Source: Longispora albida DSM 44784
Lineage (GTDB): Bacteria > Actinomycetota > Actinomycetes > Mycobacteriales > Micromonosporaceae
Direction of reading: 5' to 3'
Assembly (NCBI RefSeq): GCF_000379825.1
Contig: NZ_KB903834.1
Location: 199,976-231,975, forward strand
DNA length: 32,000 nucleotides
A program made the position numbers and the translations under genes. The notes under the pieces are model-generated. The model was not told where the DNA came from and searched no databases. It saw only the letters and a list, made by a program, of their open reading frames with translations. Below, in pieces: positions 1,726-17,670 of this stretch. Position 1 is the stretch's first letter, and each line of letters opens with the position of its first letter.

Positions 1726-2880
1726 GTGGATTCCGTGACCCGGCGCCGGTTCCTGCTGGCGAGTGGCGTGGTGGGGGCCGGTGCCCTCGCGGCCGGCGGC
1801 TCGACCATCGCCCTGTCGTCGCTCTTCGAGACCCCCGAGGGCAGAGTCCTCGGTGGACGGCCACTGGTCGTCGTGACCCTGTACGGCGGCAACGACGGCC
1901 TGAACACCGTGATCCCGTACACCGACAAGGCGTACCACGCCGCACGGCCCGACCTCGCCTACACCGAGACGCTGACGCTCGGCTCCGGCCTCGGGCTCAA
2001 CCCGAAGATGTTGGGCTTCAAGAAGCTGTGGGACGCGGGGAAACTCGCGATCGTCCGCGGCGCCGGGTACCCGAAGCCCAACCGGAGCCACTTCAGCTCG
2101 ATGGACATCTGGCAGACCGGTTCGCCGGACAGTCCGGTGGACACGGGCTGGCTCGGCCGGTGGCTCGACGCGACCAAGGGCGGGCCGCTCGACGCGATCT
2201 CCTTCGAACCGGTACTGCCACCGCTGCTCGCAGGCTCCACAGTGGCCGGTGGCTCGGTGCCGCTCAAGGGCTTCACGTCGACGTCGCTGGTGACAGGGCT
2301 GGCCGGGCCGGGTGGGCCCTCGCTGCGCGACCGGGTGTCGGCCTCCTACACCGACCTGCTCGCCGTCCGGAAGCTCGCCGTGTCGGTCGACACCGACGAA
2401 CCAGGCGAGGACGCCGAGCACGAGCAGGGGCCGCTCGCAGCCCAGCTCGACATGACGGCCCGGTGCATCGAGGCCGGGGCGCAGGCCAGGGTGTACTCGG
2501 TCAGCCTCGGCGGCTTCGACACCCACGCCGTCGAGAAGGCCGCTTCGGAACGCCTGCTCGGAGAGGTGGACGCGGCGGTCAGCGCGTTCGCCGCCCGGGT
2601 ACCCGGCGCCGTGGTCCTGGTCTACTCGGAGTTCGGGCGGCGGGTGCGGGGCAACGGCTCCGACGGTACCGACCACGGCACAGCCGGGCCGGCCTTCGTG
2701 ATCGGCGGCAACGGCGGCTTCTTCGGCCAGCAGCCCAGCCTCACCGACCTCGACCGGGGCGACCTGAAGGCGACCACGGACTTCCGGGACATCTACGGCA
2801 GCCTGCTCAGCTCGGTGCTAAACACGGACCCGGGCAAAGTGCTCAACGGCTGGCAGGGCCGCGTCCCCGGCCTGTTCTGA
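1726..2880 (+). CDS. DUF1501 family protein (Tat-exported, sulfatase/alkaline-phosphatase-like fold)
   Basis: GTG at 1726 lies one nt after the TGA of the upstream gene. Twin-arginine signal TRRRFLLASGVVGAGALAAGG. C-terminal SEFGRRVRGNGSDGTDHGTAGPAFVIGG is typical of DUF1501. Confidence 0.75.
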   Translation: MDSVTRRRFLLASGVVGAGALAAGGSTIALSSLFETPEGRVLGGRPLVVVTLYGGNDGLNTVIPYTDKAYHAARPDLAYTETLTLGSGLGLNPKMLGFKKLWDAGKLAIVRGAGYPKPNRSHFSSMDIWQTGSPDSPVDTGWLGRWLDATKGGPLDAISFEPVLPPLLAGSTVAGGSVPLKGFTSTSLVTGLAGPGGPSLRDRVSASYTDLLAVRKLAVSVDTDEPGEDAEHEQGPLAAQLDMTARCIEAGAQARVYSVSLGGFDTHAVEKAASERLLGEVDAAVSAFAARVPGAVVLVYSEFGRRVRGNGSDGTDHGTAGPAFVIGGNGGFFGQQPSLTDLDRGDLKATTDFRDIYGSLLSSVLNTDPGKVLNGWQGRVPGLF

Positions 2881-2942
2881 GGTTGTGCCGACCGCCTTAG
2901 ATCAAGAGCGAAGGTCAAACCAGGGTGGCGAGGGCCGGCTGG

Positions 2943-3149
2943 TTATTCCTCTTCGGGGTCCAGGTTCACTTCTTCGGCGTTCTCGCCCAGGACGTAGGCC
3001 GCCATCGCGAGTTCGTCGTCGGCCGGGGACACGAAGGCCGGGAGTTCGGCCGGGCCGAGCTGCTGGAGGTATGTCCAGAACTGGGCGACCGCCTCGGCCG
3101 GGGACTCGGCCTCGATGGGCAGGTCGACACTTACCAGCCAGGAACGCAT
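2943..3149 (-). CDS. small acidic hypothetical protein (68 aa)
   Basis: ATG at 3149 and TAA stop. GC3-rich codon usage like its neighbours. Acidic C-terminus NAEEVNLDPEEE. No recognisable domain. Confidence 0.5.
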   Translation of the reverse strand: MRSWLVSVDLPIEAESPAEAVAQFWTYLQQLGPAELPAFVSPADDELAMAAYVLGENAEEVNLDPEEE

Positions 3150-3264
3150 GATCTCACTCTAGTACGCGTTCACCTGCACTGATCTGCGGGTGAACGGCGC
3201 TGGCGCGACAATCATTTGCGTACGTCGATAGACTCGGCAGGACTGGACGGAAGGGGCACCTGCC

Positions 3265-4497
3265 GTGGCTGGGACACATTCGGCGTACTCGCGGCGAGAC
3301 TTCCTGACCGGCGTGCTCGCCTGCGGCACGCTCACCTCGGCGGCCATCTACCTGCTCCCCGGCGGCAGCCAGCCGAAGGACACCGAGCTGACCCTGGTCA
3401 CCGGGGCCGACTCGACCGGAGCCCGCCAGCTCCTGATCGACATGTGGAACCGGGCCAACCCCCGGGTCCGGGTCAGCCTCGCCACCTCGCAGGGCGCGAC
3501 GGCCGACCAGAAACGGCAGGCCGTCACGGCCGCGCGTAACGGCGTGGCCGACGTGGTGAACCTCGACGCGATCGACATCCAGGACTTCGCCGGGCAGGGG
3601 CTGCTCCGGCCGATCGAGATGCACGACGCCGAGCTGTTCCTCGACCGGGCGATCCGGGCCAACCGGGTGCCCGGCGACCCCGACCGGTACTGGGCCGTGC
3701 CCTTCAACACCGACGTCGGCATGCTCTTCGCCCGGCAGGAGCCCGGAGACCCGGCCGAGCACACGCTGCGCGAGGTGCTCGACGACGCGGCGCTGGACGG
3801 TACGCGAGCCTTCGTCGGCCAGCTCGACCCGGCGTCGTCAGCCTCGAACGAGGCCTTCGTCGTCAACATCCTCGAACACGCGCTCGCCCGCGACGAGGGC
3901 ATCCTCGACGTGAACGGCGGGCCGGCCTACGACCTCGGGCGCTGGCAGCAGGCACTCCAGCCACTACGGGTGGCCGCGGCCAAGGGCCGGGTGCTGCTGT
4001 CCGACAACGAGCAGAGCAGCCTGGAGGCGTTCGGGGAGCCGGGGCGGCGGTACATGAGGAACTGGCCGGTGCAGTACCGGGTGCTCCAGCAGAAGGAGGA
4101 TCCGGGCGTGCGGAACGCGCGGCTGCGGGTACGGGCGCTGCCGATCGGGATCCTCGGCGGGCAGAGCCTGGCCGTCGTCGCCGGTTCGCGCAATCCGGGG
4201 CCAGCCGCCGACCTGATCCGGTTCCTGACCGGCGAGGAGGCCCAGAAGGTCCTCGCGGCGCACGGGCTCGCCCCGACCAGGACCAACGCCTACATCGACC
4301 CGAACCTGAAGGCGTTCATCCCGCACCTGGGCGCGATCCGGGGCGCCGTGGAGAGGTCCAGGCCCCGGCCGGTGCACCGCGACTACGGCCGGTTCGCCGA
4401 GGCCGTCGTGCTGCACGCCGGCCGGCTGCTGCGGAGCAACATCGACCTGCCATCCAAGTTCGTCGACGACATGCGCGCTGCGCTGGGAGGCAGGTGA
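3265..4497 (+). CDS. extracellular solute-binding protein (ABC-type SBP family), Tat signal, no adjacent permease or ATPase
   Basis: GTG at 3265 preceded by GGAAGGGG. Tat signal SRRDFLTGVLACGTLTSAAIYL. 410 aa with an SBP-like sequence (ELTLVTGADSTGARQLL..., WAVPFNTDVGMLF). Confidence 0.65.
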   Translation: MAGTHSAYSRRDFLTGVLACGTLTSAAIYLLPGGSQPKDTELTLVTGADSTGARQLLIDMWNRANPRVRVSLATSQGATADQKRQAVTAARNGVADVVNLDAIDIQDFAGQGLLRPIEMHDAELFLDRAIRANRVPGDPDRYWAVPFNTDVGMLFARQEPGDPAEHTLREVLDDAALDGTRAFVGQLDPASSASNEAFVVNILEHALARDEGILDVNGGPAYDLGRWQQALQPLRVAAAKGRVLLSDNEQSSLEAFGEPGRRYMRNWPVQYRVLQQKEDPGVRNARLRVRALPIGILGGQSLAVVAGSRNPGPAADLIRFLTGEEAQKVLAAHGLAPTRTNAYIDPNLKAFIPHLGAIRGAVERSRPRPVHRDYGRFAEAVVLHAGRLLRSNIDLPSKFVDDMRAALGGR

Positions 4498-4808
4498 TCG
4501 GGGTGCGCGTCGAACTGTGGCTGATCCCGCTGCTGGTCACGGCCGGGATCGTGGTCGTGGAGTACGGGCTGCGCGTCGCACGCGACCGGGGCCTGCTGCC
4601 GGCCGCGCGCCGGCTCCGGCTGCGGACCGGCGCGCTGGTCGGGCTGGCTGGCATCATGCTCGCGCTGCTCTGGCAGGCGTGGTCGCGGATCGGCACGTCG
4701 GTGATGGCCAACCTGGCGGCCGTGCTCTCCACGCTCGTGGAGGTCATCACGCTGTGGCTGACCTACCAGTCCTACCGGGAACTGCGGAGCAGGAAGGACC
4801 AGCCTTAG
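4494..4808 (+). CDS. small integral membrane protein (about 3 TM helices, 104 aa)
   Basis: GTG at 4494 overlaps the SBP stop (GTGA at 4494-4497). Hydrophobic segments LWLIPLLVTAGIVVV, ALVGLAGIMLALLW and LAAVLSTLVEVITLWL. Its stop TAG overlaps the TAA of the convergent gene (TTAG at 4805-4808). Confidence 0.55.
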   Translation: MIGVRVELWLIPLLVTAGIVVVEYGLRVARDRGLLPAARRLRLRTGALVGLAGIMLALLWQAWSRIGTSVMANLAAVLSTLVEVITLWLTYQSYRELRSRKDQP

Positions 4809-6541
4809 CGCTCGTCCTGGTACCCGTCGGGGACGAACACCTGCTCTGGTACGCCGAACGCCTCCACAAGGGTCAGTGTGTGCGGGGCGAGCGCCGTCAC
4901 CGCCCTGTCGATCAGGTCAGGTAGCTCCTCGACCTGCTCCGCGGTGAGCCGGCCGGCTGCGAGCAGCACGCCGTCGTGGCCGGAGATCCGCCGCAGGGCG
5001 AACAGCCGGTGCACCCCGCGCAGCACTTCCCTTGCTGGCTGGCCGTCGGCGCGCTCGGCCCAGTCGTGCAGTGCCTCGGCTGCCAGGCGGTGCGCATGGG
5101 CTGCGACCAGCTCGAGAGCCGGGCCGACGGTGGCGTTCCACCGGGCCAGCGGTGACCGGGCGCCGCGGTCCCGGAGCTTGCGGCTCGCCCGCTGGTGCCA
5201 GATCTCCTCGATGCCGATCAGCAGCCCGTGCAGGTACGCGGGGTCAGCCAGGTCCGGCTCGGTTCGCGGGACCGCGGGCCTGCGCCAGCCGAGGCTCAGC
5301 TCGGCGGCTGCCTTGTTCCAGATCACCAGGTTGTCGCCCTCGGCGGTGATCGGGCCTTCGATCGCGGCGATCGGGTCGGCGAACCCGTTCACCCGGAGCG
5401 CGCCGCGTGCCCCGCACCGCTCACGGCACTCGATGGCCACTGCGCGGCCCTGCCACGTGGTCCAGCCCTTGGTGATCGCGACGACGCGTTCGGCCTCGGA
5501 CCGGTCCGCGGGTCCGGCGTCCAGCCAGCGGCGCACGGCGTACCGATGCAGTGCGGTCACGGCATAGGCAGTGACAGTCGCGTCAACGAGCCGGGCCTGG
5601 TGTGCCCCGTGCTCGAAGAGCGTGACCGACTCGCCGGGCCTCAGGCCGGCCGTCGATCGGGCGTGCGCGTGCCGGACCGCGAGGGCGACGGCCGTCTTCG
5701 CCGCGCTGACCCCGCAGGCACTCATGCACAGCTTCCCGGCGGTGACCCGGCCGATCGCGTGCAGTAACCGGCGACGGCCACTGCCAGCCGCCTGGCCGGA
5801 CGGCAGCGGGCCGAGGAGCGCTTCCGGCGGCAGGCGTACCTGGTCGAAGCTGGTCACGGCATGGTCGACCGGGCAGGTGAGCGCCGGCGGCAGCAGCTCG
5901 ATCCGTACTCCTGGCATCGGCTGGCGCCCGTCGTTCAGCCGGGTGAGGAACAGGTGCACGCCATGGTCCGTACTGTCGGCGAGCAGCCTCGCGGCGACCA
6001 GCCCGGTCTTGGCGCCGCCCGCGCTGGACGTGTTGGGCATGAACTTCGCCGCGCCCCGGTTCGGAGTGTGCAGGACGAAGTCGCCGGTCCCGGGGTCCCG
6101 GGTCGCCGTGGTCTCCAGCCTCGCGGCGTCGTTACCGTGCGCCACCTCGGTGCACAGGAACGTGCCGGTCTCGCGCAGCCCGGTGTACTCCGCCAGGTCG
6201 CGTACGCCCTCGGGCTCCAGGTCCAGCAGGCTGCCGAGGAACAGGTTGTAGTGGATGCCGGCGATCGCGGTGAAGCCGGGTTCGACCGCGCCCGTCCACT
6301 CGTGCATCACGGCGAGCTGCTCGGGATCGGCCACGAAGGCCGGCACGTCAGCAAGGCTCTCGTTGACCAGCGCGAGCAGCCGGTACGCCCGGTGCACCCG
6401 CTCCTCGTGGGACAGGCCGCCACGGTGAGCGAAGCCGGTTGTCCCGATCAGCTTGCGCCACCACTCGTGCAGGCCTGCGGACTCTGGTGGGTACAGCACG
6501 CTGGTCAGGGCCGACAGGACCGACGCGTTCACGGTGTTCAT
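4805..6541 (-). CDS. acyl-CoA oxidase-like / acyl-CoA dehydrogenase family protein
   Basis: 578 aa. TEVAHGNDAARLETTATRDPGTGDFVLHTPNRGAAKFMPN resembles the ACOX middle-domain signature (E.GHGS/N...LET.A.yD....eF.ihTP...a.K.w). Confidence 0.75.
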   Translation of the reverse strand: MNTVNASVLSALTSVLYPPESAGLHEWWRKLIGTTGFAHRGGLSHEERVHRAYRLLALVNESLADVPAFVADPEQLAVMHEWTGAVEPGFTAIAGIHYNLFLGSLLDLEPEGVRDLAEYTGLRETGTFLCTEVAHGNDAARLETTATRDPGTGDFVLHTPNRGAAKFMPNTSSAGGAKTGLVAARLLADSTDHGVHLFLTRLNDGRQPMPGVRIELLPPALTCPVDHAVTSFDQVRLPPEALLGPLPSGQAAGSGRRRLLHAIGRVTAGKLCMSACGVSAAKTAVALAVRHAHARSTAGLRPGESVTLFEHGAHQARLVDATVTAYAVTALHRYAVRRWLDAGPADRSEAERVVAITKGWTTWQGRAVAIECRERCGARGALRVNGFADPIAAIEGPITAEGDNLVIWNKAAAELSLGWRRPAVPRTEPDLADPAYLHGLLIGIEEIWHQRASRKLRDRGARSPLARWNATVGPALELVAAHAHRLAAEALHDWAERADGQPAREVLRGVHRLFALRRISGHDGVLLAAGRLTAEQVEELPDLIDRAVTALAPHTLTLVEAFGVPEQVFVPDGYQDER

Positions 6542-6553
6542 GTCTCGTTGATC

Positions 6554-6584
6554 GGGTTCCCGCCCGCTGGCCGGGCGGGAACCC
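6554..6584 (-). terminator. 13-bp GC-rich hairpin downstream of the EF-hand gene and 12 nt upstream of the acyl-CoA oxidase start
   Basis: GGGTTCCCGCCCG (6554-6566), loop CTGGC, then CGGGCGGGAACCC (6572-6584), a perfect complement. No U-tract, so an I-shaped terminator or attenuator. Confidence 0.5.
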
Positions 6585-6591
6585 GCCGTTG

Positions 6592-7146
6592 TCAGCGGCC
6601 GAGGCTGCCGAAGAAGCCGCTCATCGGGGAGTCGGCCGAAGGGTTGCGGTAGAAGTCGCTCGCCGCGGCCAGCAGTTCCTCCCGGTCGATGCGGCCGTCA
6701 CCGTCCGTGTCGATCAGCCGGAAGACCCGCTCGCTGTCCTCGGTGGAGACACCCATCGCGACCTGGGCCTGCCGGAATTCCGCCATCGAGACGATCCCGC
6801 TGTCGTCGGCGTCGGCGAGCGCGAAGATCGCCGAGGCCAGCGGACGGAGCAGTTCGTCGAAGCCCTGCTCGCTCTCGCCGACAGCCACCGTGAGCGCCGC
6901 GCTGAACTGCTCACGGCTGAACGGGCCGTCGCCGCCACCGAGCTGGGCCGAGATGCCGTTCCAGTAGCTGACGAAGGCCGCCCGGACCGTCTCGATCTTC
7001 GCGGGAGCCGCCGTGGCGCCGAACCCGGCGATCACGCGCTCGCCGAGAGCCGTCATGTCCGCCGCGCGCAGGTCACCGCTGCCGTCGATGTCGAGCAGGT
7101 CAAACAGCCGGGAGTACTTGATCGAGAAGTCGGTAGCCATAGTCAT
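6592..7146 (-). CDS. EF-hand calcium-binding protein (calerythrin / sarcoplasmic Ca-binding protein-like)
   Basis: 184 aa with canonical EF loops DIDGSGDLRAADM, DADDSGIVSMAEF and DTDGDGRIDREEL. Confidence 0.85.
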   Translation of the reverse strand: MTMATDFSIKYSRLFDLLDIDGSGDLRAADMTALGERVIAGFGATAAPAKIETVRAAFVSYWNGISAQLGGGDGPFSREQFSAALTVAVGESEQGFDELLRPLASAIFALADADDSGIVSMAEFRQAQVAMGVSTEDSERVFRLIDTDGDGRIDREELLAAASDFYRNPSADSPMSGFFGSLGR

Positions 7147-7152
7147 GGCAGA

Positions 7153-7158
7153 AGTATA
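7153..7158 (-). promoter_or_regulatory. putative -10 box TATACT, 6 nt upstream of the EF-hand ATG (leaderless-type promoter)
   Basis: The minus strand reads TATACT-tctgcc-ATG. There is no Shine-Dalgarno. The surrounding region 7147-7185 is locally AT-rich. Confidence 0.4.
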
Positions 7159-7212
7159 GGCCTTATGTAAAATAAGTCCGATTTGGGGCTGGCGGGGCCA
7201 GTGGGGCCAGAG

Positions 7213-7785
7213 TCAGGACGCTGGCTTCTCCATGCACCCGATCAGGTGGTCGTTGACCATGCCGGTGGCCTGCATCAGGGCGTAGGCCGTCGTCGGGCCG
7301 AAGAACTTGAAGCCAGCCTTCTTCAGCGCCTTCGCCATCGCGGTCGACTCGGCCGTCACGGCCGGGACGTCGCCGCCGGTCGCCGGGCGGGCCTGGTCGG
7401 GCACCGCGTACGCCCAGAGGAAGTCCGAGAGCCCGCCGGGCAGGTCCAGCGCGACCCTGGCGTTGTGGATCGCTGCCTCGATCTTCATCCGGTTGCGGAC
7501 GATGCCCTGGTCGGCCATCAGCCGCTCGACGTCGTCGCTGCCGAACCCGGCGACGGTCTCCAGCGCGAAGTCACCGAACGCCGCCCGGAAGGCCGCGCGC
7601 TTGCGGAGGATGGTGATCCACGACAGCCCGGACTGGAAGGCCTCCAGGGTCAGCCGCTCGTACAGCGGCTCGTCGCCGCGCACGGGCTGCCCCCACTCCT
7701 CGTCGTGGTAGGGCAGGTATTCCGGAGCGGAGTAGGCCCAGTGGCAGCGGCCGAGCCCGTCGGGCCCCACAACCAGCGCAGTCAT
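7213..7785 (-). CDS. tag: DNA-3-methyladenine glycosylase I
   Basis: 190 aa. YHDEEWGQPVRGDEPLYERLTLEAFQSGLSWITILRKRAAFRAAF is the classic Tag signature. Confidence 0.9.
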   Translation of the reverse strand: MTALVVGPDGLGRCHWAYSAPEYLPYHDEEWGQPVRGDEPLYERLTLEAFQSGLSWITILRKRAAFRAAFGDFALETVAGFGSDDVERLMADQGIVRNRMKIEAAIHNARVALDLPGGLSDFLWAYAVPDQARPATGGDVPAVTAESTAMAKALKKAGFKFFGPTTAYALMQATGMVNDHLIGCMEKPAS

Positions 7786-7817
7786 GCCGCCAACGGTATC
7801 GGAGGGGTACGACGGGG

Positions 7818-8297
7818 CTAGCGCTTGCCCTCGTCCTCAGTGGACCCGGTGGCCTCGGCGGACTCCGGAAGCTCGGGCTCGGCGTCCAGGTCGATGATCT
7901 CTTCGTGGTCGCTGGCCGCCGGGTGCTGGCCGCCGGCCGCGAGCCGGGCCTCCCTGAGCCGGTCGGCGTCGTCGGCCCGGCCCTCGCGCAGGGCGACGAC
8001 CTCGGATTCGAGGACGCTGATCAGCTCCTGCTTGTAGCCGAGGTCGTAGCCGAGGCGGCCGATCGCCTCGTCGACCTGGTCGGCGCGGTACCCGCGCAGG
8101 CCCACGTCGAACCGCAGGCGGCCCAGGTCGCCCTCCGCCAGTGGCCGGCCGGCCGGGAGGGCGACGGCGCGCCCGTCGGGCTCGACCACGGCGAGGCCGG
8201 GATCGGTACCGGTCAGCAGGGCGGCGGCGCCGAACACGATGCCACCGGCGACCAGCGCGACGACGAGCAGCAGCAGGACCTGGTTCATAACCGGCAA
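7818..8297 (-). CDS. DivIVA domain-containing membrane-anchored protein
   Basis: N-terminal TM LLLLVVALVAGGIVFGAAALL, then LRFDVGLRGYRADQVDEAIGRL (DivIVA N-terminal motif). The ORF-track start at 8297 is TTG. An in-frame ATG at 8288 is an equally plausible start. Confidence 0.75.
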   Translation of the reverse strand: MPVMNQVLLLLVVALVAGGIVFGAAALLTGTDPGLAVVEPDGRAVALPAGRPLAEGDLGRLRFDVGLRGYRADQVDEAIGRLGYDLGYKQELISVLESEVVALREGRADDADRLREARLAAGGQHPAASDHEEIIDLDAEPELPESAEATGSTEDEGKR

Positions 8298-8341
8298 TGC
8301 TAGTGCCGGCCGGCAGTCAGCGCGAGGCCTGCGTGCGAGCG

Positions 8342-8896
8342 TCAGCCGACTTCCTTGAGCGACGTGGCCAGCTGGGCCAGCGCGCCGTCCAGGGTATCGA
8401 CGATGATCAGGGATTCCAGGGCTGCCTCGCGGACCATGCCGAGCGTGACGAGCCGGCCGAGCCAGGTCAGCAGGCCGTCGTAGAAGCCGCCGGCGTTCAC
8501 GACGACCACGGGCTTGGCGTGCATGCCGAGCCCGGCCGTCGTCCAGACCTCGAACAGCTCGTCGAGGGTGCCGAGCCCGCCGGGGAGTACCAGGAAGGCG
8601 TCCGAACGATCGATCATCTGGCCCTTGCGATCCAGCATCGACCCCGCGACCACCAGCTCGTCGGATCCGGTGTCGGCGATCTCGACGGCGGCAAGCGCCT
8701 CGACGATGATCCCGACCGTGTACCCACCGGCCGAGCGGGCGCCGCTGGTCACGGCGCCCATCATCCCGACACGGGCCCCGCCGCTGACCAGGGTGTGCCC
8801 GGCCTCGGCCAGCCGGATGCCGGTCTCGCGGGCGAGGTCCAGATAGGACTGCGCGACGGTGACCGACGAGGCGCAGAAGACGCAGACGGCTGCCAT
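8342..8896 (-). CDS. LOG family protein (TIGR00730, short type-I-like, 184 aa)
   Basis: ATG at 8896 overlaps the TGA of the upstream LOG gene (ATGA). MAAVCVFCASS... and the LOG motif PGGLGTLDELFE. The longer ORF-track extension to 9502 overlaps the upstream gene and is rejected. Confidence 0.85.
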   Translation of the reverse strand: MAAVCVFCASSVTVAQSYLDLARETGIRLAEAGHTLVSGGARVGMMGAVTSGARSAGGYTVGIIVEALAAVEIADTGSDELVVAGSMLDRKGQMIDRSDAFLVLPGGLGTLDELFEVWTTAGLGMHAKPVVVVNAGGFYDGLLTWLGRLVTLGMVREAALESLIIVDTLDGALAQLATSLKEVG

Positions 8897-9645
8897 CAGA
8901 TCCGGCCGGCCGCCTGGATCCGGTGCACTGCCTCGGCCACGTCGTCGGTGAGGTGGACCAGGTCGAGGTCGAGCGGCCCGATCATGCCGTCGGCGAGCAT
9001 GCTGGTCCGCAGCCAGCCGAGCAGGCCCGACCAGTAGTCGACGCCGAGCAGGACCACGGGGAACTCGGTGACCTTGCCGGTCTGCACGAGGGTCAGCGCC
9101 TCGAACAGCTCGTCCATCGTCCCGAAGCCGCCGGGCAGGACGCAGAAGGCCTGCGCGTACTTGATGAACATGGTCTTGCGGGCGAAGAAGTAGCGGAAGT
9201 CGATCCCGATGTCGCACCACTCGTTGAGGCCCTGCTCGAACGGCAGCTCTATCCCCAGCCCGACCGACAGGCCACCAGCCTCCTGGCAGCCCTTGTTGGC
9301 GGCTTCCATGACGCCCGGCCCGCCACCCGTGATCACGGCATAGCCGGCCTGGGCGAGCGCGGCACCCAATTCCTCGGCCAGCAGGCACTCGGGGCTGTCG
9401 GGCTTGCTGCGCGCCGAGCCGAACACGCTGACCGCCGGCGGCAGCTCGGACAGGGTGTCGAAGCCCTCGACGAACTCCGCCTGGATCCGCAGCGAGCGCC
9501 ACGCGTCGCCGATCCGCCAGTCCTGGCGGCCCTTCGAGTCGAGCAGCCGCTGGTCGGCGGTGACGAGCTGGCTGGCGGCACCCCTGCGCAGTGTGACCGG
9601 GCCTCGGTGCCGCTCGGGTCCTCTCTTTTCCGTCATGTCAGCCAT
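8896..9645 (-). CDS. LOG family protein (TIGR00730, long type-II-like, 249 aa)
   Basis: VSVFGSAR..., ITGGGPGVMEAANKG and PGGFGTMDELFE are LOG / cytokinin riboside 5'-monophosphate phosphoribohydrolase family motifs. Confidence 0.85.
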   Translation of the reverse strand: MADMTEKRGPERHRGPVTLRRGAASQLVTADQRLLDSKGRQDWRIGDAWRSLRIQAEFVEGFDTLSELPPAVSVFGSARSKPDSPECLLAEELGAALAQAGYAVITGGGPGVMEAANKGCQEAGGLSVGLGIELPFEQGLNEWCDIGIDFRYFFARKTMFIKYAQAFCVLPGGFGTMDELFEALTLVQTGKVTEFPVVLLGVDYWSGLLGWLRTSMLADGMIGPLDLDLVHLTDDVAEAVHRIQAAGRI

Positions 9646-9647
9646 TG

Positions 9648-10715
9648 TCAGCCATTGACCCCGGCGAGCCAGTCACGCAGCACCGCAGCCCCGTCGATGA
9701 TCTTCTGGATCTCCACGTGCTCGTCCTGCTTGTGGGCCAGATTGGGGTCGCCGGGGCCGAAGTTGACGGCCGGGACGCCGAGCGCAGAGAAGCGGGCGAC
9801 GTCCGTCCAGCCGAGCTTGGCGCGCGGCTCGGCACCGGCCAGAGCCAGGAAGTCCTTCACCGCTGGCTGTTCGAGGCCGGGCAGCGCACCGGGCGCCGAG
9901 TCGGAGAGTTCAACGTCAAACCCGTCAAAAACCTCTTTCACGTGTACCAGCGCCTCGGCCTCGCTCCTGTCCGGCGCGAACCGGTAGTTGACCGTCACCT
10001 CGCACCGGTCCGGGATCACGTTGCCCGCGACCCCGCCATTGATCAGCACGGCGTTGAGCCCCTCGCGGTACTCGCAGCCGTCGATGAGGACCGTGCGGGC
10101 CTCGTAGGCGTCGAGCCGGCGGAGCAGCTCGCCCATCGCGTGGATCGCGTTGACGCCGAGCCAGGAGCGGGCCGAGTGCGCGCGTTTGCCGTGCGTGGTG
10201 ACGCGGACCCGCATCGTGCCCTGGCACCCGGCCTCGACCACGCCGTACGTCGGCTCCAGCAGGACGGCGAAGTCGCCGGCCAGCCACTCCGGGTTCTCCT
10301 GGGCGATCCGGTTGAGCCCGTTGCGCTCGGCTTCGACTTCCTCGCAGTCGTAGAAGAAGTACGTGACGTCGTGGACGGGCTCGGTGAGCGTCGCGGCGAG
10401 GTGCAGTGCGATGGCTGTGCCGGACTTCATGTCGGACGTGCCGCAGCCGTGCATGACGCCGTCCTCGGTACGCGACGGCCAGTTGTCGTGGTGCGGCACC
10501 GTGTCGAGGTGGCCGGCCAGCACGACGCGGCTCGCCCTGCCCAGATTCGTCCGGGCCATCACGGAATTACCGGAGCGGGCGACGCTCAGATGCGGAAGGT
10601 TTAGCGCGGCCTCGACCTGCCCGGCGATATTTTCCTCATCGCCGGAGACCGACGAGATATCGACCAGGGCCCGGGTCAGCGCGACAGGGTCTGCGAGCTC
10701 ATCCGTTGTCAGCAC
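9648..10715 (-). CDS. dapE: succinyl-diaminopimelate desuccinylase
   Basis: 355 aa M20 peptidase: [34 protein letters not shown]. It is divergent from dapD. GTG start at 10715. Confidence 0.85.
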
Positions 10716-10734: not shown

Positions 10735-11643
10735 GTGAGCAGCGAATTTCTCGACGAGACGGCATGGGGCTCAGGCCTCGCGACCGTGACAGCCGACGGC
10801 ACCGTCCTGGAAGTCTGGTACCCGGAGCTCGGCCTCGGCGAGGCCCGCGACGTGACCCTCCCGGCGGGCGAGCGCCCGCTCGGCATGCGGCGCGTACCGG
10901 TCACGACCAGCATCAGCCTGGCCGAGCCCCCGAAGGACACCGCCGACGCGTACCTGCGCCTGCACCTCATCTCCCACCGGATCATCCGGCCGCACCAGGC
11001 CAACCTGGACGGGATCTTCGGCATCCTCCCGAACATCGCGTGGACCTCGGCCGGCCCGGTGCTGCCCGAGCAGGTCAACGAGCTGCGGCTGACCGTGCCG
11101 CACCTGACGGTGTTCTCTGTGGACAAGTTCCCGCGCATGGTCGACTACGTCGTGCCGTCCGGTGTCCGGATCGCCGACGCCGACCGGGTGCGGCTGGGCG
11201 CGCACCTGGCGCCCGGCACGACGGTCATGCACGAGGGCTTCATCAACTTCAACGCCGGCACGCTCGGCGCCTCGATGGTCGAGGGCCGGATCGTGGCCGG
11301 GGTGGTCGTCGGGGACGGCTCGGACATCGGGGCCGGCGCCTCGATCATGGGTACGCTCTCCGGCGGCGGCAAGCAGGTCGTCTCGATCGGCGAACGCTGC
11401 CTGCTCGGGGCCAACGCCGGCATCGGCATCTCGCTGGGTGACGACTGCGTCGTGGAGGCCGGGCTGTACGTCACGGCGGGTACGAAGGTCACCCTGCCCG
11501 ACGGCCGGATCGTCAAGGCGCTGGAGCTGTCCGGTTCCTCCGGCATCCTCTACATCCGCAACTCGGTGACGGGCACGGTGGAAGCGCGGGCCCGCAAGGG
11601 TACGGGCATCACGCTGAACGCCGCGCTGCACGCCAACGACTAG
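10735..11643 (+). CDS. dapD: 2,3,4,5-tetrahydropyridine-2,6-dicarboxylate N-succinyltransferase (actinobacterial type)
   Basis: 302 aa. It has a C-terminal left-handed beta-helix hexapeptide region ([46 protein letters not shown]...). It sits in dapE-divergent synteny. Stop TAG at 11641-11643. Confidence 0.85.
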
Positions 11644-11807
11644 GGTCTGTCCGGTAGATCTTGTCGGTGCGAGGCGAGTCTCAGGAGTCGGCTGACAAGC
11701 CGTTTTCCTCCCGGAATACCGGTGTTGTATTCCGGGAGGAAAACGGCGCAGGCAGGCGGCTTCTGAGGCCGCCGCAGCCCGGCAAAGATCTACCGGACAG
11801 ACCCTAG
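11640..11807. mobile_element. 168-bp non-coding MITE-like element with perfect 23-bp terminal inverted repeats and an internal 20-bp perfect hairpin
   Basis: TIRs are CTAGGGTCTGTCCGGTAGATCTT (11640-11662) and AAGATCTACCGGACAGACCCTAG (11785-11807). The inner stem 11699-11718 pairs with 11728-11747 around the loop CCGGTGTTG. There is no ORF. The left CTAG contains the dapD stop codon. Confidence 0.6.
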
Positions 11808-11823
11808 TTCTCCCGCTCCTCCA

Positions 11824-11870
11824 CTGTGGCTGGTACCGATCCGGTACCGGCCACAGGTCTTTTCTCCCTT
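11824..11870 (+). terminator. intrinsic terminator (presumably the original dapD terminator)
   Basis: CTGTGGCTGGTACCG (11824-11838), loop ATC, then CGGTACCGGCCACAG (11842-11856). That gives 15 bp with one U-G pair, followed by GTCTTTTCTCCCTT. Confidence 0.7.
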
Positions 11871-11932
11871 GATGAACCAGGGAGATCCTGATTGGCTCAC
11901 CGGGCGACTCGACCGCAGGGGGACACAAACGG

Positions 11933-14854
11933 ATGACGGTGGAACTGCGGATACTCGGACCGGTTCAGTTACTGGTGGACGGCACGGCCGTGACGATCGG
12001 CCCGCCGCGCCGCGTGGCCGTCCTGGCCGCACTGCTCGCGGAGCACGGCAGGCTGGTACAGCAGGACACGCTGACCCAGCGGGTCTGGGGCGACGAGGCC
12101 CCGGACTCCGTACGCTCGACCCTCCACGCGCACCTGAGCCGCATCCGGGCCCTGCTCGACGGCACGGGCGTGCAGATCCGGCGCGAGGGCTCCGGCTACC
12201 TGGCTAGCGTGCCGGACGGCGTGCTCGACCTCCAGGTCTTCCGCTCGATGGTCGCCGAGGCCCGCGCTCTGCCCGCCGAGCGTCTCGCCGAACGGGCTGC
12301 CCTGCTCGCGGCGGCGCTCGGGCAGTGGCGGGGCAGGCCGCTCTCCGGGCTGACCGGGCCGGCCACCGGCTGGGCCGAGCGCACCGCCGAGACCCTCGAC
12401 CGCCAGCGCCTGACCGTGATCGCGGAGTGGGCCGACGCCGAACTCCAGCTCGACCGGCCGGGTTCCGTGCTCGACGCGCTGGCCACGCTCACCGCGGAGT
12501 ACCCGCTGGCCGAGCAGCTCACCGGCCGCCTGATGCTCGCCCTGGCCCGTTCCGGCAGGCGCGCCGAGGCGCTGGACGTCTACGCCCGCGCCCGGGAACA
12601 CCTCGCGGCCGAGCTCGGCGAGAACCCGGGTCCGTACCTGCGTGACCTGCACACCCGGATGCTGCGCGGCGAGGAGAACACCCCAGGCGACGAGCCAGCC
12701 GCCGCCGAGCCCGCACCGGGGCCGGCCCCGGTCTGCCAGCTCCCGGCCGGGGTGGCCGACCACACGGGCCGGCTGGCCGAGACCGGGTCAGCCATCGAGG
12801 CGCTGAGCCGGGCGGACGGCCGGGCTGGCGCGCTGGTGACGATCTCCGGCATGGGCGGCACCGGCAAGACCTCCCTCGCCGTGCACATCGCCCACCAGGT
12901 CCGGGACCAGTACCCGGGCGGGCAGCTCTTCGCCCACTTGCGCGGCCTCGACGAGCACCCGGCCCAGCCAGCCGACGTGCTCGCCGAGTTCCTGCGGGCG
13001 CTGGGCGTGGCCGGTCACGCCATCCCGGACCGGCTCGACGACCGGGCAGCCGCGTACCGCTCGCTGCTGAGCAGCCGCCGGGTCCTGGTCGTGCTGGACG
13101 ACGCCACCGACGAGCGGCAGGTCAGGCACCTGCTCCCCGGCGCGGGCCACTCCGCGGTACTCGTGACCAGCCGCTCACCGCTGTCCACTCTGGACGGCGC
13201 GCTGCGGCTGAGGATCGGCGAGCTGCCCGAGCCTGAAGCGCTCGACCTGCTCCGCCGGGCCAGCACCCCGGGCCAGGTCGACGCCGACCCGGCGGCAGCG
13301 AGGCACCTGGCCGAGCTGTGCGCCCGCATGCCGCTGGCCCTGCGCGTCGCCGGAGCCCGGCTCGCCCACCGGCCACACTGGACGGCCGCCGAGCTGGTCG
13401 AGGCGCTGGCCGACGAGCGGGACCGGCTCGACGCCCTCGACCAGGGCGACCTCGGCGTCCGGACCAGCCTGGCGCTGAGCTTCCACGCCCTGCCGGGACC
13501 CGCCGCCGGGCTGCTGCTGCGGCTGGCCACCCTGCCCAGTACCGACTTCCCCGGCTGGGCCGCCGCCGCGCTGCTCGACCAGCGCCCGGCCCCGGCCCGC
13601 GAGACGCTGGAGCTGCTGGTGGACGCGCAGCTCGTGCAGCTGCGCGGGCGCGACGACCTCGGCCAGGTCCGGTACCAGCTGCACGACCTGGTCCGGCTCT
13701 TCGCCCGCGAGGAGTCCGAGCGGGCACTGCCGGTCGTGGAGCGCGCCGAGTGCCGCGAGCGGTACTTCGACGGCTGGCTGGCGCTCGCCGAGGAAGCCGA
13801 GCGGCGGGCCCCGCACGGGTACCTGGGCCCGAGCCCGCTGCGCCCCGACCGGTGGCCGTGGCTGGCGGAGCTGCGCGGGCGGCTGATCGCCGATCCGTAC
13901 CGCTGGCTGGAGGCCGAGATGCCGGTCCTCACGGCGGTGGTGGAGGCGGCGGCCGAGCACGGGTACGTGCAGCACGCCTGGCGGATCGCCCGCTCGGCCG
14001 TCGGGTTCTTCGAGGTCCGTGGCCGGTACGCGGACTGGAGGCGCACGCACGAGGCAGCGCTGAGGGCGGCACGGGAGGTTGGGGACCGGCAGGGTACGGC
14101 GGCGATGCTGCACGGGCTCGGTGAGCTGACGGCCGTGCTCGACGACTACGACACGGCCCCGCGCTGCCTCACCGAGGCCCGGGATCTCTTCACGACGCTC
14201 GGCGACCCGCAGGGCGCTGTGCTGTCGGAGTGCGCGCTGGGCGTCGTGGACCGCATCCTCGGCCGCCGCGAGGAGTCGGTGGCCCGGCTCCGGTCGGCAG
14301 CCGCCGAGGCCGGGGCGCACAAGGAGTCACGGGCCGAGGCCTACGCCAGGTACCTGATCGGCATGACGCTGCTCGACGGCGGCGACTACCCGGCGGCCGA
14401 GGCCGAGTTCGCCCGTTCGCAGGCCCTCGCGCACAGCTGCCGTTTCATCCGTGGCGAGCAGCAGGCGCTGCGCGGGCTGGCCGTCGTGAGCCTGCGGACC
14501 GGCAACCTCGCCTCGGCGCGCGGCCGGGCCTCCGACGCGCTGGTGATGAGCCAGCGGATCGGGGACGAGCTGGAGACCGCGTACACGATCAACGTCCTGG
14601 GTGACTCGGCGCGCCAGCTGGGCGAACTCGCCCAGGCCGAGAAGCTGCTGACCTCCTCGCTGGCCATGTTCCGCAGGTGCGGCGAGAAGTACGGCGAGGC
14701 AGCGACCCTGCACCTGCTCGGCGAGGTCTACCTCGACGGTGGCCAGCCGGAGCCGGCCCGCAGCCACCTGGAGGCCGCCCGCGTCCTCTGGGACCTGCTC
14801 GACGCTCCAGCCGGCCAGGAACGCACAGCCCGCGCCCTCAACCGGCTCAGCTGA
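11933..14854 (+). CDS. AfsR/SARP-family transcriptional regulator with BTAD, NB-ARC (STAND) ATPase and TPR domains
   Basis: 973 aa. The N-terminus has a winged-helix/SARP and BTAD region (ELRILGPVQLLVDG..., DLQVFRSMVAEA..., PLAEQLTGRLMLALARSGRRAEALDVYARAREHLAAELGENPGPYLRDLH). P-loop ISGMGGTGKTSLA, Walker B RVLVVLDDA, then VLVTSR. The C-terminus has TPR-like repeats. Codon 13 is TTA. Confidence 0.9.
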   Translation: MTVELRILGPVQLLVDGTAVTIGPPRRVAVLAALLAEHGRLVQQDTLTQRVWGDEAPDSVRSTLHAHLSRIRALLDGTGVQIRREGSGYLASVPDGVLDLQVFRSMVAEARALPAERLAERAALLAAALGQWRGRPLSGLTGPATGWAERTAETLDRQRLTVIAEWADAELQLDRPGSVLDALATLTAEYPLAEQLTGRLMLALARSGRRAEALDVYARAREHLAAELGENPGPYLRDLHTRMLRGEENTPGDEPAAAEPAPGPAPVCQLPAGVADHTGRLAETGSAIEALSRADGRAGALVTISGMGGTGKTSLAVHIAHQVRDQYPGGQLFAHLRGLDEHPAQPADVLAEFLRALGVAGHAIPDRLDDRAAAYRSLLSSRRVLVVLDDATDERQVRHLLPGAGHSAVLVTSRSPLSTLDGALRLRIGELPEPEALDLLRRASTPGQVDADPAAARHLAELCARMPLALRVAGARLAHRPHWTAAELVEALADERDRLDALDQGDLGVRTSLALSFHALPGPAAGLLLRLATLPSTDFPGWAAAALLDQRPAPARETLELLVDAQLVQLRGRDDLGQVRYQLHDLVRLFAREESERALPVVERAECRERYFDGWLALAEEAERRAPHGYLGPSPLRPDRWPWLAELRGRLIADPYRWLEAEMPVLTAVVEAAAEHGYVQHAWRIARSAVGFFEVRGRYADWRRTHEAALRAAREVGDRQGTAAMLHGLGELTAVLDDYDTAPRCLTEARDLFTTLGDPQGAVLSECALGVVDRILGRREESVARLRSAAAEAGAHKESRAEAYARYLIGMTLLDGGDYPAAEAEFARSQALAHSCRFIRGEQQALRGLAVVSLRTGNLASARGRASDALVMSQRIGDELETAYTINVLGDSARQLGELAQAEKLLTSSLAMFRRCGEKYGEAATLHLLGEVYLDGGQPEPARSHLEAARVLWDLLDAPAGQERTARALNRLS

Positions 14855-14907
14855 CCCCCGTCTCGTTTGCGCGCTGGCACGTTGCCACGGACCCGGGTGC
14901 GCCTCGG

Positions 14908-14913
14908 TAGGCT
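14908..14913 (+). promoter_or_regulatory. putative -10 box TAGGCT, 6 nt upstream of the ATPase ATG (leaderless-type)
   Basis: TAGGCT-ggcctc-ATG (ATG at 14920). There is no SD in the 65-nt gap after the SARP stop. Confidence 0.35.
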
Positions 14914-14919
14914 GGCCTC

Positions 14920-16296
14920 ATGCTGACCAGGTTGGAAGTCCAGGGTTTCAAGAACCTGCTGGACGTCCGGGTGGACTTCGGCCCGTTCACCTGCATCGCG
15001 GGCGCCAACGGCATCGGCAAGTCCAACCTGTTCGACGCGATCGAATTGCTGTCGTACCTGGCGGAGATGCCCCTCGCCGAAGCCGCGAAACGTGTCCGGG
15101 GATCTTCGGACCCGCGAGACCTTTTCTGGAACGGTTACCAGTCCGGTGAACACCAGATGAGCCTCGCAGCCGAGATGATTGTTCCCGGGGAGGCGTGGCT
15201 GACCGCGGGCGGCCACGAGGCCATCCCTGACTCCTACCTGCGCTACGAAGTCGTGCTCGGATTGGAGGAAGCCTCCGGCCCGGCGAGCGTTGGCAAGCTC
15301 GTCATCATGAGGGAAGATCTCCACCCGCTCTCAGCGGCTTCCCTCGTGGGGAGTCCCGTCGAGCGGCTAGCCGCAGACATAAGCAGCCAGTCTGCGGCCA
15401 GGCCGCTTCTGACCTCCCGTATGGACGACAGTCGGCTCCGGCTCGCCTATCACAGCGACCAGGGCCCGGTAATCATGAACGTGCCCAAGCATCCGAAGGG
15501 GCACCGAACCGGCCTCAGCATGATGATCTTCAGCCTGGCGCCTTCGGTCTGGCCCGCCCGGCAGGAGATGCTCGGCTGGCGGCGGCTGGCCCTCGAACCT
15601 TCGGCGCTCCGCGCGCCCGACAGCTTCGGAGACCCTCGGGTGCTGAGCACCGATGGCCGGTACCTCGCAGCCAGCCTGTATCGCATTGCGCATGAAGGAT
15701 CCAGCGACCCCGACGCCGTCTACGCCCGCGTCGCCGGACGGCTGGCGGACCTCGGCGACACTGGTGTCCGCGAGGTTTCCGTCGAACCGGACGAGATCAG
15801 GGAGGCCTTCACGCTGTTCCTCACGACGCGTGACGGCATGCGGCTACCGGCGAGGGCCTTGTCCGAAGGCACCCTGCGTTTCCTAGCCCTGTGTGTGCTT
15901 CTCGAGGACCCCGATCTCACAGGTCTGATCTGCATGGAGGAGCCGGAGAACGGCATCCACCCGGCGAATCTGCCAGCCGTGGTCAGGCTGATCCAGGATC
16001 TTGCTCTGGACCCAGCGGAACCGGTGGACGAGACCAATCCGTTCCGGCAGGTGATTGTCAACACTCACTCCCCGGGCGTGGTCCAGGTGTGCGACCCGCA
16101 GGACCTGTTGCTCGCCGAACTGCTACCTCAGCAGGCGCCGGACGGCAGCGTGACCAGCGCGCTGACATTGCTTCCGTTCAAGGACTCCTGGCGAGCGGCA
16201 TCTGGGATCACGACGTTCTCCGAAGCCGACATCGTGCCCTACCTCACTGCTCCATCTGGCACACAACTTCGCCTGCCTTCGGAGTGGAACCAGTGA
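14920..16296 (+). CDS. non-transporter ABC-type (RecF/SMC/OLD-like, AAA_15/AAA_21-type) ATPase
   Basis: 458 aa. MLTRLEVQGFKNL..., Walker A GANGIGKSN, signature-like LSEGTLRFLAL, Walker B LICMEEPENGIHP, H-loop VNTHSP. A long insert separates Walker A from the signature. There is no permease partner. It uses many A/T-ending and rare codons (TTG, CTA, ATA, AGT, TCT, AAT). Confidence 0.8.
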   Translation: MLTRLEVQGFKNLLDVRVDFGPFTCIAGANGIGKSNLFDAIELLSYLAEMPLAEAAKRVRGSSDPRDLFWNGYQSGEHQMSLAAEMIVPGEAWLTAGGHEAIPDSYLRYEVVLGLEEASGPASVGKLVIMREDLHPLSAASLVGSPVERLAADISSQSAARPLLTSRMDDSRLRLAYHSDQGPVIMNVPKHPKGHRTGLSMMIFSLAPSVWPARQEMLGWRRLALEPSALRAPDSFGDPRVLSTDGRYLAASLYRIAHEGSSDPDAVYARVAGRLADLGDTGVREVSVEPDEIREAFTLFLTTRDGMRLPARALSEGTLRFLALCVLLEDPDLTGLICMEEPENGIHPANLPAVVRLIQDLALDPAEPVDETNPFRQVIVNTHSPGVVQVCDPQDLLLAELLPQQAPDGSVTSALTLLPFKDSWRAASGITTFSEADIVPYLTAPSGTQLRLPSEWNQ

Positions 16297-16934
16297 GGCA
16301 ACGTTCCGGGCTGTTCATCGCGGAGGGCACCTCCGACTTACCGCTGGCGGATCTCGTGGAAGCGTTGTTTCTCGAACAGGGCGTGAGTGTACGGCTCAGC
16401 AAACCAGACTTCGGTCTTCTTGAGCGCAGTATCAAAAAGGATGTCAGGTCCAAGCTCGAAGCTGGCTGTCAGCTGGCCGGGCAGCCAGTCGATGTCCTGG
16501 TCGTGCACCGGGATGCCGACAACGCGGGTCCGGCACCCCGGCGGCAAGAGATCGCCGAAGCCTCCGCTCAGAGCGCTCCTGAGGCCGCCGTGATTCCCGT
16601 GGTGCCTGTCCGGATGACCGAGGCTTGGCTACTGCTCGACGAGGCAGCGATCCGCCAGGTCGCCGGTAATCCGAAGGGGCGCAGCTCACTGGGGCTTCCG
16701 AACCCGCGAGAGGCTGAACGGGTCGCCGACCCGAAGAAGCTCCTCGCGGAATGCCTTGCCGAGGCCTCCGGTGCGACAGGGCGTCGCCGCAAGCAGATGG
16801 CTGAGCGGTTCCCGCAGCACCGCCGCCAGCTCCTGGAGCGTTTGGACCCCTTCGGCCCGGTCACCCGGCTGGAGAGCTGGAAGCAGCTGGTGGCCGACGT
16901 GGAGGACATCGTGGCCAGCTGGACTGGTCGGTAA
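16293..16934 (+). CDS. small TOPRIM-like protein, probable DUF4276 family (213 aa)
   Basis: GTG at 16293 overlaps the ATPase stop (GTGA). N-terminal LFIAEGTSD (Glu) and VLVVHRDADN (DxD) give a TOPRIM-like acidic pattern. The length fits DUF4276 as I recall it. A TTA codon lies at 16338-16340. Codon usage is atypical. Confidence 0.6.
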   Translation: MRQRSGLFIAEGTSDLPLADLVEALFLEQGVSVRLSKPDFGLLERSIKKDVRSKLEAGCQLAGQPVDVLVVHRDADNAGPAPRRQEIAEASAQSAPEAAVIPVVPVRMTEAWLLLDEAAIRQVAGNPKGRSSLGLPNPREAERVADPKKLLAECLAEASGATGRRRKQMAERFPQHRRQLLERLDPFGPVTRLESWKQLVADVEDIVASWTGR

Positions 16935-16935
16935 G

Positions 16936-17670
16936 TCACTCGCTGCCGCCGCCCGAGCGGGACGGGAAGAAGGGCCGGAGCAGGCCGGCCAGTGCCTCGA
17001 TGTTGCGGGTCTGCATGAGGAGCGTGCCGGGCCCGGTGAAGGTCGCGACCAGTCCCTCTCCTGACGTCATCGAGCGGAAGATGCTCTTCGTGGCCTTGTT
17101 GATCGTGTACGGCATCGCGGCGGGCCAGGCCACCAGGTGCCCGGTGTCCACGACGTAGCGCTCGCCCGGCTGGAGCACCCGGCTGTGCAGTGCGCCGTAC
17201 GCGGTCACGAACAGCAGCCCGTTCCCCCGGATCTGGAGCACGAACATGCTCTCGCTGCTGAAGAAGGACCGCGCGCCGCCCCAGCCCGTCTCGACCTCCA
17301 GGCTGGGCTCGGCCGCGAGGTAACAGGACGCAGCCACGTTGTACGCCTCGCCGGACACGTGCAGCGGCACGATGTCACCCGGCGCGCCCGGCGCCAGCGT
17401 CAGCTCCCCCGGCCCGCCCCGCGCCGTGTACGTCGACACGAAAGCGCTCCGCCCGCCGGCCCCGCGTTTGAGCGCGCCCCACAGCCCGCCCTCCATCTGG
17501 GACTCCAGCTCGACGTTGCCGCTCATGCTGACCATCGCGCCGGCCTCGGCCTTCACCGGCTGCTCCGGGGCGAGCACGAGCGTGGCCAGCGCGAAGGCCG
17601 GGCGGTAGCCGATCTGGTAGCTGAACGCCGGGGTCTGGCCGGCGTCGGGAAGCACGCGAAGCTCGGTCAT
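16936..17670 (-). CDS. AIM24 / TIGR00266 (DUF124) family protein
   Basis: 244 aa. AEAGAMVSMSGNVELESQMEGG...GEGLVATFTGPGTLLMQTRN is typical of the family. It lies 18 nt downstream of dapC on the same strand. Its stop is 1 nt from the convergent stop at 16934. Confidence 0.75.
   Translation of the reverse strand: MTELRVLPDAGQTPAFSYQIGYRPAFALATLVLAPEQPVKAEAGAMVSMSGNVELESQMEGGLWGALKRGAGGRSAFVSTYTARGGPGELTLAPGAPGDIVPLHVSGEAYNVAASCYLAAEPSLEVETGWGGARSFFSSESMFVLQIRGNGLLFVTAYGALHSRVLQPGERYVVDTGHLVAWPAAMPYTINKATKSIFRSMTSGEGLVATFTGPGTLLMQTRNIEALAGLLRPFFPSRSGGGSE

Follow-up and report, generated by a model that had tools for sequence, protein, structure and literature searches.

The question raised by this locus is what two overlapping genes, atypical in base composition and set among housekeeping genes, are doing in the genome of Longispora albida DSM 44784, a member of the Micromonosporaceae. 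The window, meaning the whole stretch of DNA analysed, comprises 32,000 nt of the forward strand of contig NZ_KB903834.1 (positions 199,976 to 231,975; assembly GCF_000379825.1), and the coordinates given below are those of the window unless another locus is named. The first gene of the pair (gene A, 14920..16296, forward strand, ATG start) encodes an ATP-binding cassette (ABC)-type ATPase of 458 aa, and the second (gene B, 16293..16934, forward strand, GTG start) a DUF4276 protein of 213 aa and 23 kDa with a predicted TOPRIM-like fold, a putative metal-dependent nuclease effector. The pair is assigned here, from profile searches and gene order, to the PADLOC candidate system HEC-01. As to its role, the reading that we moderately favour, by analogy with better known systems, is that of an ATPase-controlled TOPRIM nuclease cassette acting against phages or mobile elements and expressed as a leaderless, translationally coupled bicistron.

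A preliminary description of this DNA, made from the letters alone, had already delimited both open reading frames (ORFs) and their overlap. Its positions are exact and agree with the NCBI gene models: protein A corresponds to the 'AAA family ATPase' of L. albida (458 aa) and protein B to its 'DUF4276 family protein' (213 aa), both with 100% identity and coverage. The ATPase and acidic motifs quoted there are likewise all present. Those of protein A are the Walker A GANGIGKS (residues 28-35, nt 15001-15024), the signature-like LSEGT (residues 314-318, nt 15859-15873), the Walker B LICMEEPE (residues 336-343, nt 15925-15948) and the H-loop NTH (residues 381-383, nt 16060-16068). The four follow each other in canonical ABC order, are invariant among 43 homologues and leave a spacing of about 280 residues between Walker A and signature. 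Protein B contains AEGTSD with E11 (nt 16323-16325) and HRDADN with D74 and D76 (D74-x-D76, nt 16512-16520), followed by E110 (nt 16620-16622). The TGA stop of gene A overlaps the GTG start of gene B in the tetranucleotide GTGA (16293..16296, forward strand), an arrangement suggestive of translational coupling, and a GGAG lies at 16281-16284, ahead of the gene B start. No permease or solute-binding partner for the pair was identified in the window, again as described before; the only transporter genes of the window belong to an Opp/Dpp-type operon at a distance of 8 kb, which includes two ATPases for its own use.

The identity of the family is given by the profile searches. Protein A matched the Pfam families AAA_21 (E 1.3e-27) and AAA_15 (E 2e-18), as well as SMC_N, and the PADLOC model HEC-01A (PDLC04184) with an E-value of 9.7e-89 and 296 bits over residues 1-394 of 458. 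On Pfam, PADLOC and its motifs it is classed as HEC-01A, an ABC-type ATPase of the SMC/OLD-like (AAA_21/AAA_15) kind. Protein B matched the model HEC-01B (PDLC04210) at an E-value of 7.7e-22, and all 14 PADLOC families that it matched were HEC-01B models. Pfam DUF4276 (PF14103) was passed marginally, with 30.7 bits against a gathering threshold of 30.2, so that the small protein had rightly been called DUF4276-type, narrowly by Pfam and clearly by HEC-01B. The adjacency that belongs to HEC-01 is also found, both genes being on one strand with a 4-nt overlap. Because the HEC-01A and HEC-01B matches are nearly full-length and far stronger than those to other families, the pair is assigned as a member of HEC-01; the PADLOC models of AriA, Mad3, AbiLi, GajA and Old match only part of protein A, and much less strongly than HEC-01A does. 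HEC-01 (Hma-embedded candidate 01) was named by Payne et al. 2024 for an ABC ATPase accompanied by a TOPRIM protein, originally found embedded in Hma and restriction-modification (R-M) systems, and in that study the metal site of the predicted HEC-01B structure was aligned to the TOPRIM of the Burkholderia pseudomallei OLD protein (10.1101/2024.01.29.577857). The L. albida pair has the same composition, an ABC ATPase gene followed by one for a small TOPRIM/DUF4276 protein. The type is therefore already catalogued and this locus adds one more member to it.

The structure of protein B was predicted with AlphaFold2 from 43 homologues, and the model reached a mean predicted local distance difference test score (pLDDT) of 95.4 and a predicted template modelling score of 0.89. 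Residues 1-115 show the alternation of strands and helices of a TOPRIM core and the C-terminal half is helical. E11 stands after strand 1, D74-x-D76 after strand 3 and E110 after strand 4, which reproduces the TOPRIM pattern of a conserved Glu after strand 1 and a DxD after strand 3. The top Foldseek match in the PDB was 6nk8_A, the C-terminal (TOPRIM) region of B. pseudomallei OLD, with a probability of 0.97, whereas the comparison with viral structures (BFVD) gave nothing meaningful. Conservation was scored in 122 diverse members of the B family that are 32-54% identical to the L. albida protein. D74 is invariant (122/122) and E110 is present in 100% of the 122, while positions 11 (E/D) and 76 (D/E) are acidic in 117 members each (96%). 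The N-terminal half of protein B is thus modelled as a putative TOPRIM-like fold with metal-binding acidic residues E11, D74-x-D76 and E110. A profile search found about 1,900 clusters of the family at 50% identity, and nearly all of the best 150 representatives, at about 200-220 aa, have the length of a protein that stands alone.

The association of the two genes was followed in related loci recovered by a motif scan with one genome per species. Among 185,579 species genomes 151 stretches with the pair were found, which is a lower bound, and 80 related loci were returned, almost all from Actinomycetota. A homologue of gene A lies directly upstream of gene B on the same strand in all 80, and the pairing is not due to chance since it recurs throughout. 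The overlap of stop and start is 4 nt (ATGA or GTGA) in 57 of the 71 loci that could be scored and 1 nt in 8 more. A Shine-Dalgarno-like motif precedes gene B in only 21 of 68 loci, a scarcity that fits a coupling of the reinitiation type. Pairwise distances among A proteins correlate with those among B proteins (r 0.75; none of 999 permutations as high), which demonstrates that the two are inherited together but is no proof that they touch. The split ABC-type ATPase and TOPRIM-like effector first proposed from motifs is in this way borne out by the hidden Markov model matches, the AlphaFold2 model, the OLD TOPRIM match, the conservation of the acidic residues and the strict linkage. Partial matches were seen in seven loci: that to gene B begins only at residue 68-83 in L052, L061, L066 and L077, and that to gene A is split in two or lacks the N-terminal part in L067, L076 and L080. 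These could be frameshifts, pseudogenes or errors of draft assemblies.

The second conserved element of the locus is the region just upstream of gene A. The hexamer TAGGCT (14908..14913, forward strand) lies 6 nt 5' of the ATG and resembles a -10 element, putatively the promoter of a leaderless transcript. This had been no more than a guess from a single sequence, and the comparison of loci gives it strong support: in 56 of 76 loci a TANNNT hexamer, mostly TAGGCT, TAAGCT or TAGCCT, precedes the start of gene A at a distance of 6 nt in 40 cases and of 7 nt in 16, and only 3 occurrences were found at other offsets within 40 nt upstream. The exceptions are 20 loci without the hexamer, of which 16 have a purine-rich Shine-Dalgarno-like motif. 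Because the hexamer is kept although the upstream genes vary among loci, the cassette appears to have its own leaderless-type promoter. A sigma-70 scan with an E. coli-style consensus found neither promoter nor terminator on the forward strand near the pair. At the other end, the TAA stop of gene B (16932-16934) is 1 base from the stop of a convergent AIM24/TIGR00266 gene (16936-16938). No terminator-like site was found between the two stops, and read-through of transcription from the pair, antisense into AIM24, could therefore take place.

The base composition of the pair sets it apart from its surroundings. The G+C content at third codon positions (GC3) is 0.80 in gene A and 0.757 in gene B, against 0.89-0.95 in the neighbouring genes, and all 74 loci compared have a pair whose GC3 is lower than the median of its flanks, the mean difference being 0.19; the foreign look noted in the preliminary description is thus a general trait of these loci. 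The nearest homologues of protein A (56-59% identity) are mixed across Saccharothrix, Nocardia and Micromonospora, with several orders represented and no taxonomic pattern. The genomic context is variable. None of the genes that flank the pair in the window was found beside the other 80 pairs, and the most frequent flank family is present in at most 9 of the related loci. An empty site is provided by the sister species Longispora sp. NPDC051575 (L082), where AIM24 and dapD are adjacent and the conserved blocks are 196 nt apart instead of 5.3 kb as in L. albida. The segment absent from the sister species (11642..16962) sits between the convergent genes dapD and AIM24 and comprises a palindrome, a SARP-type gene and the HEC-01 pair. 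No convincing direct repeat or att-like duplication was found at its edges. Because of the variable context and the empty site, the pair is read from these comparisons as a self-contained two-gene cassette acquired horizontally.

A minority of the loci shows the pair attached to type I R-M operons. About 6 of the 80 loci, five from Micromonospora (L002, L015, L038, L039 and L043) and one from a metagenome-assembled genome of an uncultured actinomycetote (Actinomycetota, L008), have the gene of a type I restriction R subunit on the strand of the pair, 21-34 nt upstream of it, at about 2300-10650 in each. Three of them (L002, L015 and L008) were annotated further, and S-subunit genes were identified among the upstream genes in all three and a methylase gene in L002 and L008. 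Where the methylase gene was identified the order is hsdM-hsdS-hsdR-A-B on one strand, and the pair retains its TAAGCT or TAGGCT hexamer even behind hsdR. This arrangement echoes the published discovery of HEC-01 inside Hma systems. L008 also contains a second A-like ORF (12988-13722 of that locus), truncated to 244 aa with only the N-terminal Walker A part, about 2.3 kb downstream of the intact pair. Two differences separate the present group from HEC-01 as published: the L. albida copy is from an actinomycete and stands alone among housekeeping genes instead of being Hma-embedded, and the actinobacterial clade has the conserved leaderless-type promoter signal.

Several known systems combine the same two activities. 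The analogue understood best is PARIS (Rousset 2022), in which an AAA_15/21-type ABC ATPase and a TOPRIM effector are likewise separate proteins; the AriA assembly holds AriB until a trigger arrives, and the released AriB cuts tRNA (Burman et al. 2024, PMC11464382). The likeness suggests that here too an ATPase may hold a nuclease and release it on a trigger. The effectors differ, AriB being a DUF4435 protein of about 35 kDa and HEC-01B here a DUF4276 protein of 213 aa, and PARIS is found on phages and satellites whereas the HEC-01 family was not found there. Membership in PARIS was rejected because neither PADLOC nor Pfam gave protein B a match to AriB or DUF4435 at E-values up to 1, and because the AriA models cover only residues 274-388 of protein A, in its C-terminal third (E 2.9e-27), far more weakly than HEC-01A.

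The MADS system contains a comparable ABC ATPase and DUF4276 pair, Mad3 and Mad4, the latter recognised as a DUF4276 protein (PMC12065111). Both mad3 and mad4 are required for defence, and the methylase gene mad5 can be deleted only when mad2 or mad3 is also deleted (Maestri et al., 10.1101/2023.03.30.534895). Since the loss of mad5 is tolerated only under those conditions, the deletion pattern suggests a nuclease activity that is toxic and requires the ATPase. MADS is, however, a methylation-based system of eight genes, whereas no methyltransferase or mad6-8 gene lies at the L. albida locus, and protein B matched only HEC-01B models in PADLOC. With this gene content, and with an NCBIfam MAD3 score for protein A of 126 bits against a cutoff of 420, assignment to MADS was rejected.

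OLD and GajA also join an ABC ATPase to a TOPRIM nuclease, and the best PDB matches of both proteins are OLD structures, 6nk8_A by structure for protein B and 6P74 by sequence for protein A, whose closest solved sequence is the N-terminus, namely the first 44 residues, of Thermus scotoductus OLD. A single polypeptide carries both domains in OLD and GajA; in L. albida they are encoded by two ORFs. OLD and Gabija were discarded as assignments on account of the split domains, the lack of a GajB-type helicase gene nearby and the weak GajA and Old matches of protein A (E 1e-8 to 1e-11), which lie mostly in the Walker A region. AbiL was discarded as well, the AbiLi match of protein A being weak (E 1.2e-13) and no AbiLii match being listed for protein B. 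In a wider frame, the DUF4276 and RloB domains have been placed in the TOPRIM superfamily as predicted effectors that occur with ATPases and R-M loci (PMC12065111). The NsnC-C variants of Menshen, which carry DUF4276, and the RloB proteins of type I R-M loci resemble the present pair in having a TOPRIM effector domain together with an ATPase; in the three-gene Menshen system DUF4276 is fused to NsnC, whereas here it is free-standing and coupled to its own ATPase (PMC12065111). The locus had initially been taken for a PARIS/AbiL/OLD-like system of an uncharacterised subtype. The likeness in architecture holds, membership in PARIS or AbiL does not, and the subtype already has a name, HEC-01.

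The most likely function is drawn by analogy from PARIS, OLD, Gabija and the Mad3/Mad4 part of MADS. Both genes would be transcribed as a single leaderless mRNA, most likely from the -10 hexamer 6 nt before the ATG, and the GTGA overlap would probably lead to translation of A and B in a fixed ratio. The ATPase would serve as sensor and regulator, keeping the nuclease inactive in a presumed A-B complex. The trigger may be a cue from a phage or other mobile element, possibly an anti-restriction factor. Once activated, the TOPRIM nuclease would cleave nucleic acid, either DNA or tRNA/rRNA, and the infection would be stopped.

A number of results weigh against the reading of the pair as a nuclease-based defence cassette. 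The structural support is uneven: the 6nk8_A match of protein B is weak in absolute terms (E 0.014; Foldseek template modelling scores 0.41/0.43), no sequence relative of protein B was found in the PDB, where the B-family profile search gave chance-level matches only, and the AlphaFold2 model of protein A, for which 43 close homologues were used, reached a mean pLDDT of only 58, which is too poor for the insert or a fold search, and was left aside. Among 50,697 phage records a tblastn search with protein B retrieved nothing, and plasmids contain hardly any member of the family, the same query having matched two large replicons only. The first and second neighbours on each side of most of the 80 pairs are housekeeping or metabolic genes. 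L. albida is no different, since the pair has dapD, the SARP gene, AIM24 and an aminotransferase gene as neighbours, the remainder of the window consists of housekeeping genes, and no other window gene tested against defence models gave a match. The pair had been placed in an accessory island and its homologues were expected in variable neighbourhoods; the inserted segment and the variable contexts (no flank family in more than 9 loci) agree with this, but a classic defence island was rejected on the mostly housekeeping neighbours, and R-M genes accompany few of the pairs. Finally, the sole HEC-01 representative tried by its discoverers, in E. coli, gave no defence (10.1101/2024.01.29.577857). 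Another representative, from a cold-seep study, was protective against at least one of the phages T4, T5 and T7 (10.1101/2024.09.26.614923). The TOPRIM assignment of the type and these two phage tests, one negative and the later one positive, are thus already in print.

The failure of the isolated representative leads to an alternative in which the pair is an accessory effector that needs a partner, either a type I R-M or another methylation system, and is inert or a remnant when alone as in L. albida. The loci with the pair directly behind hsdM-hsdS-hsdR on the same strand and the Hma-embedded origin of HEC-01 speak in its favour, and so do the models offered by Mad3/Mad4, which work within an eight-gene system (10.1101/2023.03.30.534895), and by the Rlo/PrrC genes of type I R-M loci. 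However, the majority of the 80 loci lack an R-M or defence gene close by and yet preserve both ORFs together with all catalytic residues, the promoter-like signal and the overlap; the hexamer is retained even behind hsdR, and a stand-alone HEC-01 gave some protection in the cold-seep work (10.1101/2024.09.26.614923). Dependence on a partner is consequently held to be unlikely. The patchy distribution, the foreign composition and the insertion between housekeeping genes would also suit a selfish addiction module of the toxin-antitoxin (TA) kind, with a nuclease toxin checked by the ATPase and no anti-phage benefit. Coupling of translation as tight as this is a typical trait of TA pairs, and the Pfam label of AAA_21 is 'putative AbiEii toxin, Type IV TA system'. 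Such modules thrive on plasmids and phages, though, from which this family is nearly missing and absent, respectively, and the usual antitoxin is a much simpler protein than an ABC ATPase of 458 aa with a large insert. The linkage to R-M operons in some genomes and the partial defence activity published also count against an addiction module, which is regarded as improbable.

Also weighed was a housekeeping function, in the repair of DNA or the maturation of RNA, comparable to those of RecF, SbcCD or RNase M5, or a role as target of the adjacent SARP regulator. The N-terminus of protein A resembles RecF/SMC, and both RNase M5 and RecR contain a TOPRIM domain; the SARP gene is on the same strand, 65 nt upstream of the pair. 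Against housekeeping stand the absence of the pair from the same site in the sister Longispora species, its rarity in the motif scan (only the 151 stretches, a lower bound), a GC3 that is atypical everywhere and scores for the RecF, SbcC and SMC models far under their cutoffs. A functional link with the SARP gene was rejected because homologues of it occur in only 2 of the other 80 loci and in neither adjoin the pair. Either role is judged very improbable. The defence cassette is thus retained as the preferred reading, and a narrower version of it can be proposed in which actinobacterial HEC-01 is a free-standing sensor of anti-restriction, whose ATPase would recognise a counter-defence factor of a phage and then release a DUF4276 TOPRIM enzyme with RNA (tRNA or rRNA) and not DNA as its target. 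The position of the pair right behind hsdMSR in several Micromonospora genomes would suit such sensing, and the proposal as a whole is speculative and rather doubtful.

The segment that contains the pair has other contents. The SARP/AfsR-type gene (11933-14854) encodes a protein of 973 aa with an OmpR-type winged helix-turn-helix, BTAD, NB-ARC and TPR domains. Its GC3 is 0.94, which is host-like, and the gene may represent a separate insertion at the same spot. Directly 3' of the dapD stop, where the segment missing in Longispora sp. NPDC051575 has its left edge, lies a long, near-perfect palindrome of about 170 nt (region 11638-11856). Its termini are perfect inverted repeats of 24 nt (ACTAGGGTCTGTCCGGTAGATCTT), its inner stem is a perfect 21 bp (11699-11747) and a second perfect hairpin of 15 bp follows at 11824-11856. 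The predicted RNA fold of the region has an energy of -169.8 kcal/mol (z = -16.7 against shuffles). No further copies of the palindrome were found in the window or in 82 loci, and no Rfam match was obtained in the window, palindrome included. It could be an element like a miniature inverted-repeat transposable element or a bidirectional terminator. The segment is not the only accessory part of the window, contrary to what had been supposed, given that about 4 kb at 3163-7242 are likewise absent from the sister Longispora contig; this stretch encodes a solute-binding protein, an acyl-CoA-oxidase-like protein and a protein of 184 aa, and it also contains a small ORF.

The value added by this locus is mainly comparative and lies in the conserved promoter-like signal, the overlap, the low GC3, the empty site and the variants appended to R-M operons. 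DUF4276 effectors belong to no fewer than three defence systems, named or still candidates (HEC-01, MADS and Menshen), and no biochemical study of them was found in the literature searched. If the proposal of an RNA-cutting sensor of anti-restriction were true, it would give DUF4276 effectors their first defined mechanism, one shared with Mad4 and the Menshen variants. The actinobacterial clade is a compact test case, with two genes and a promoter-like signal, a clean empty site and natural variants attached to R-M genes. A phage phenotype in Streptomyces or Micromonospora together with a defined substrate would, if shown, establish how DUF4276 effectors work, and such a phenotype would add to the sparse knowledge of defence in antibiotic-producing actinomycetes.

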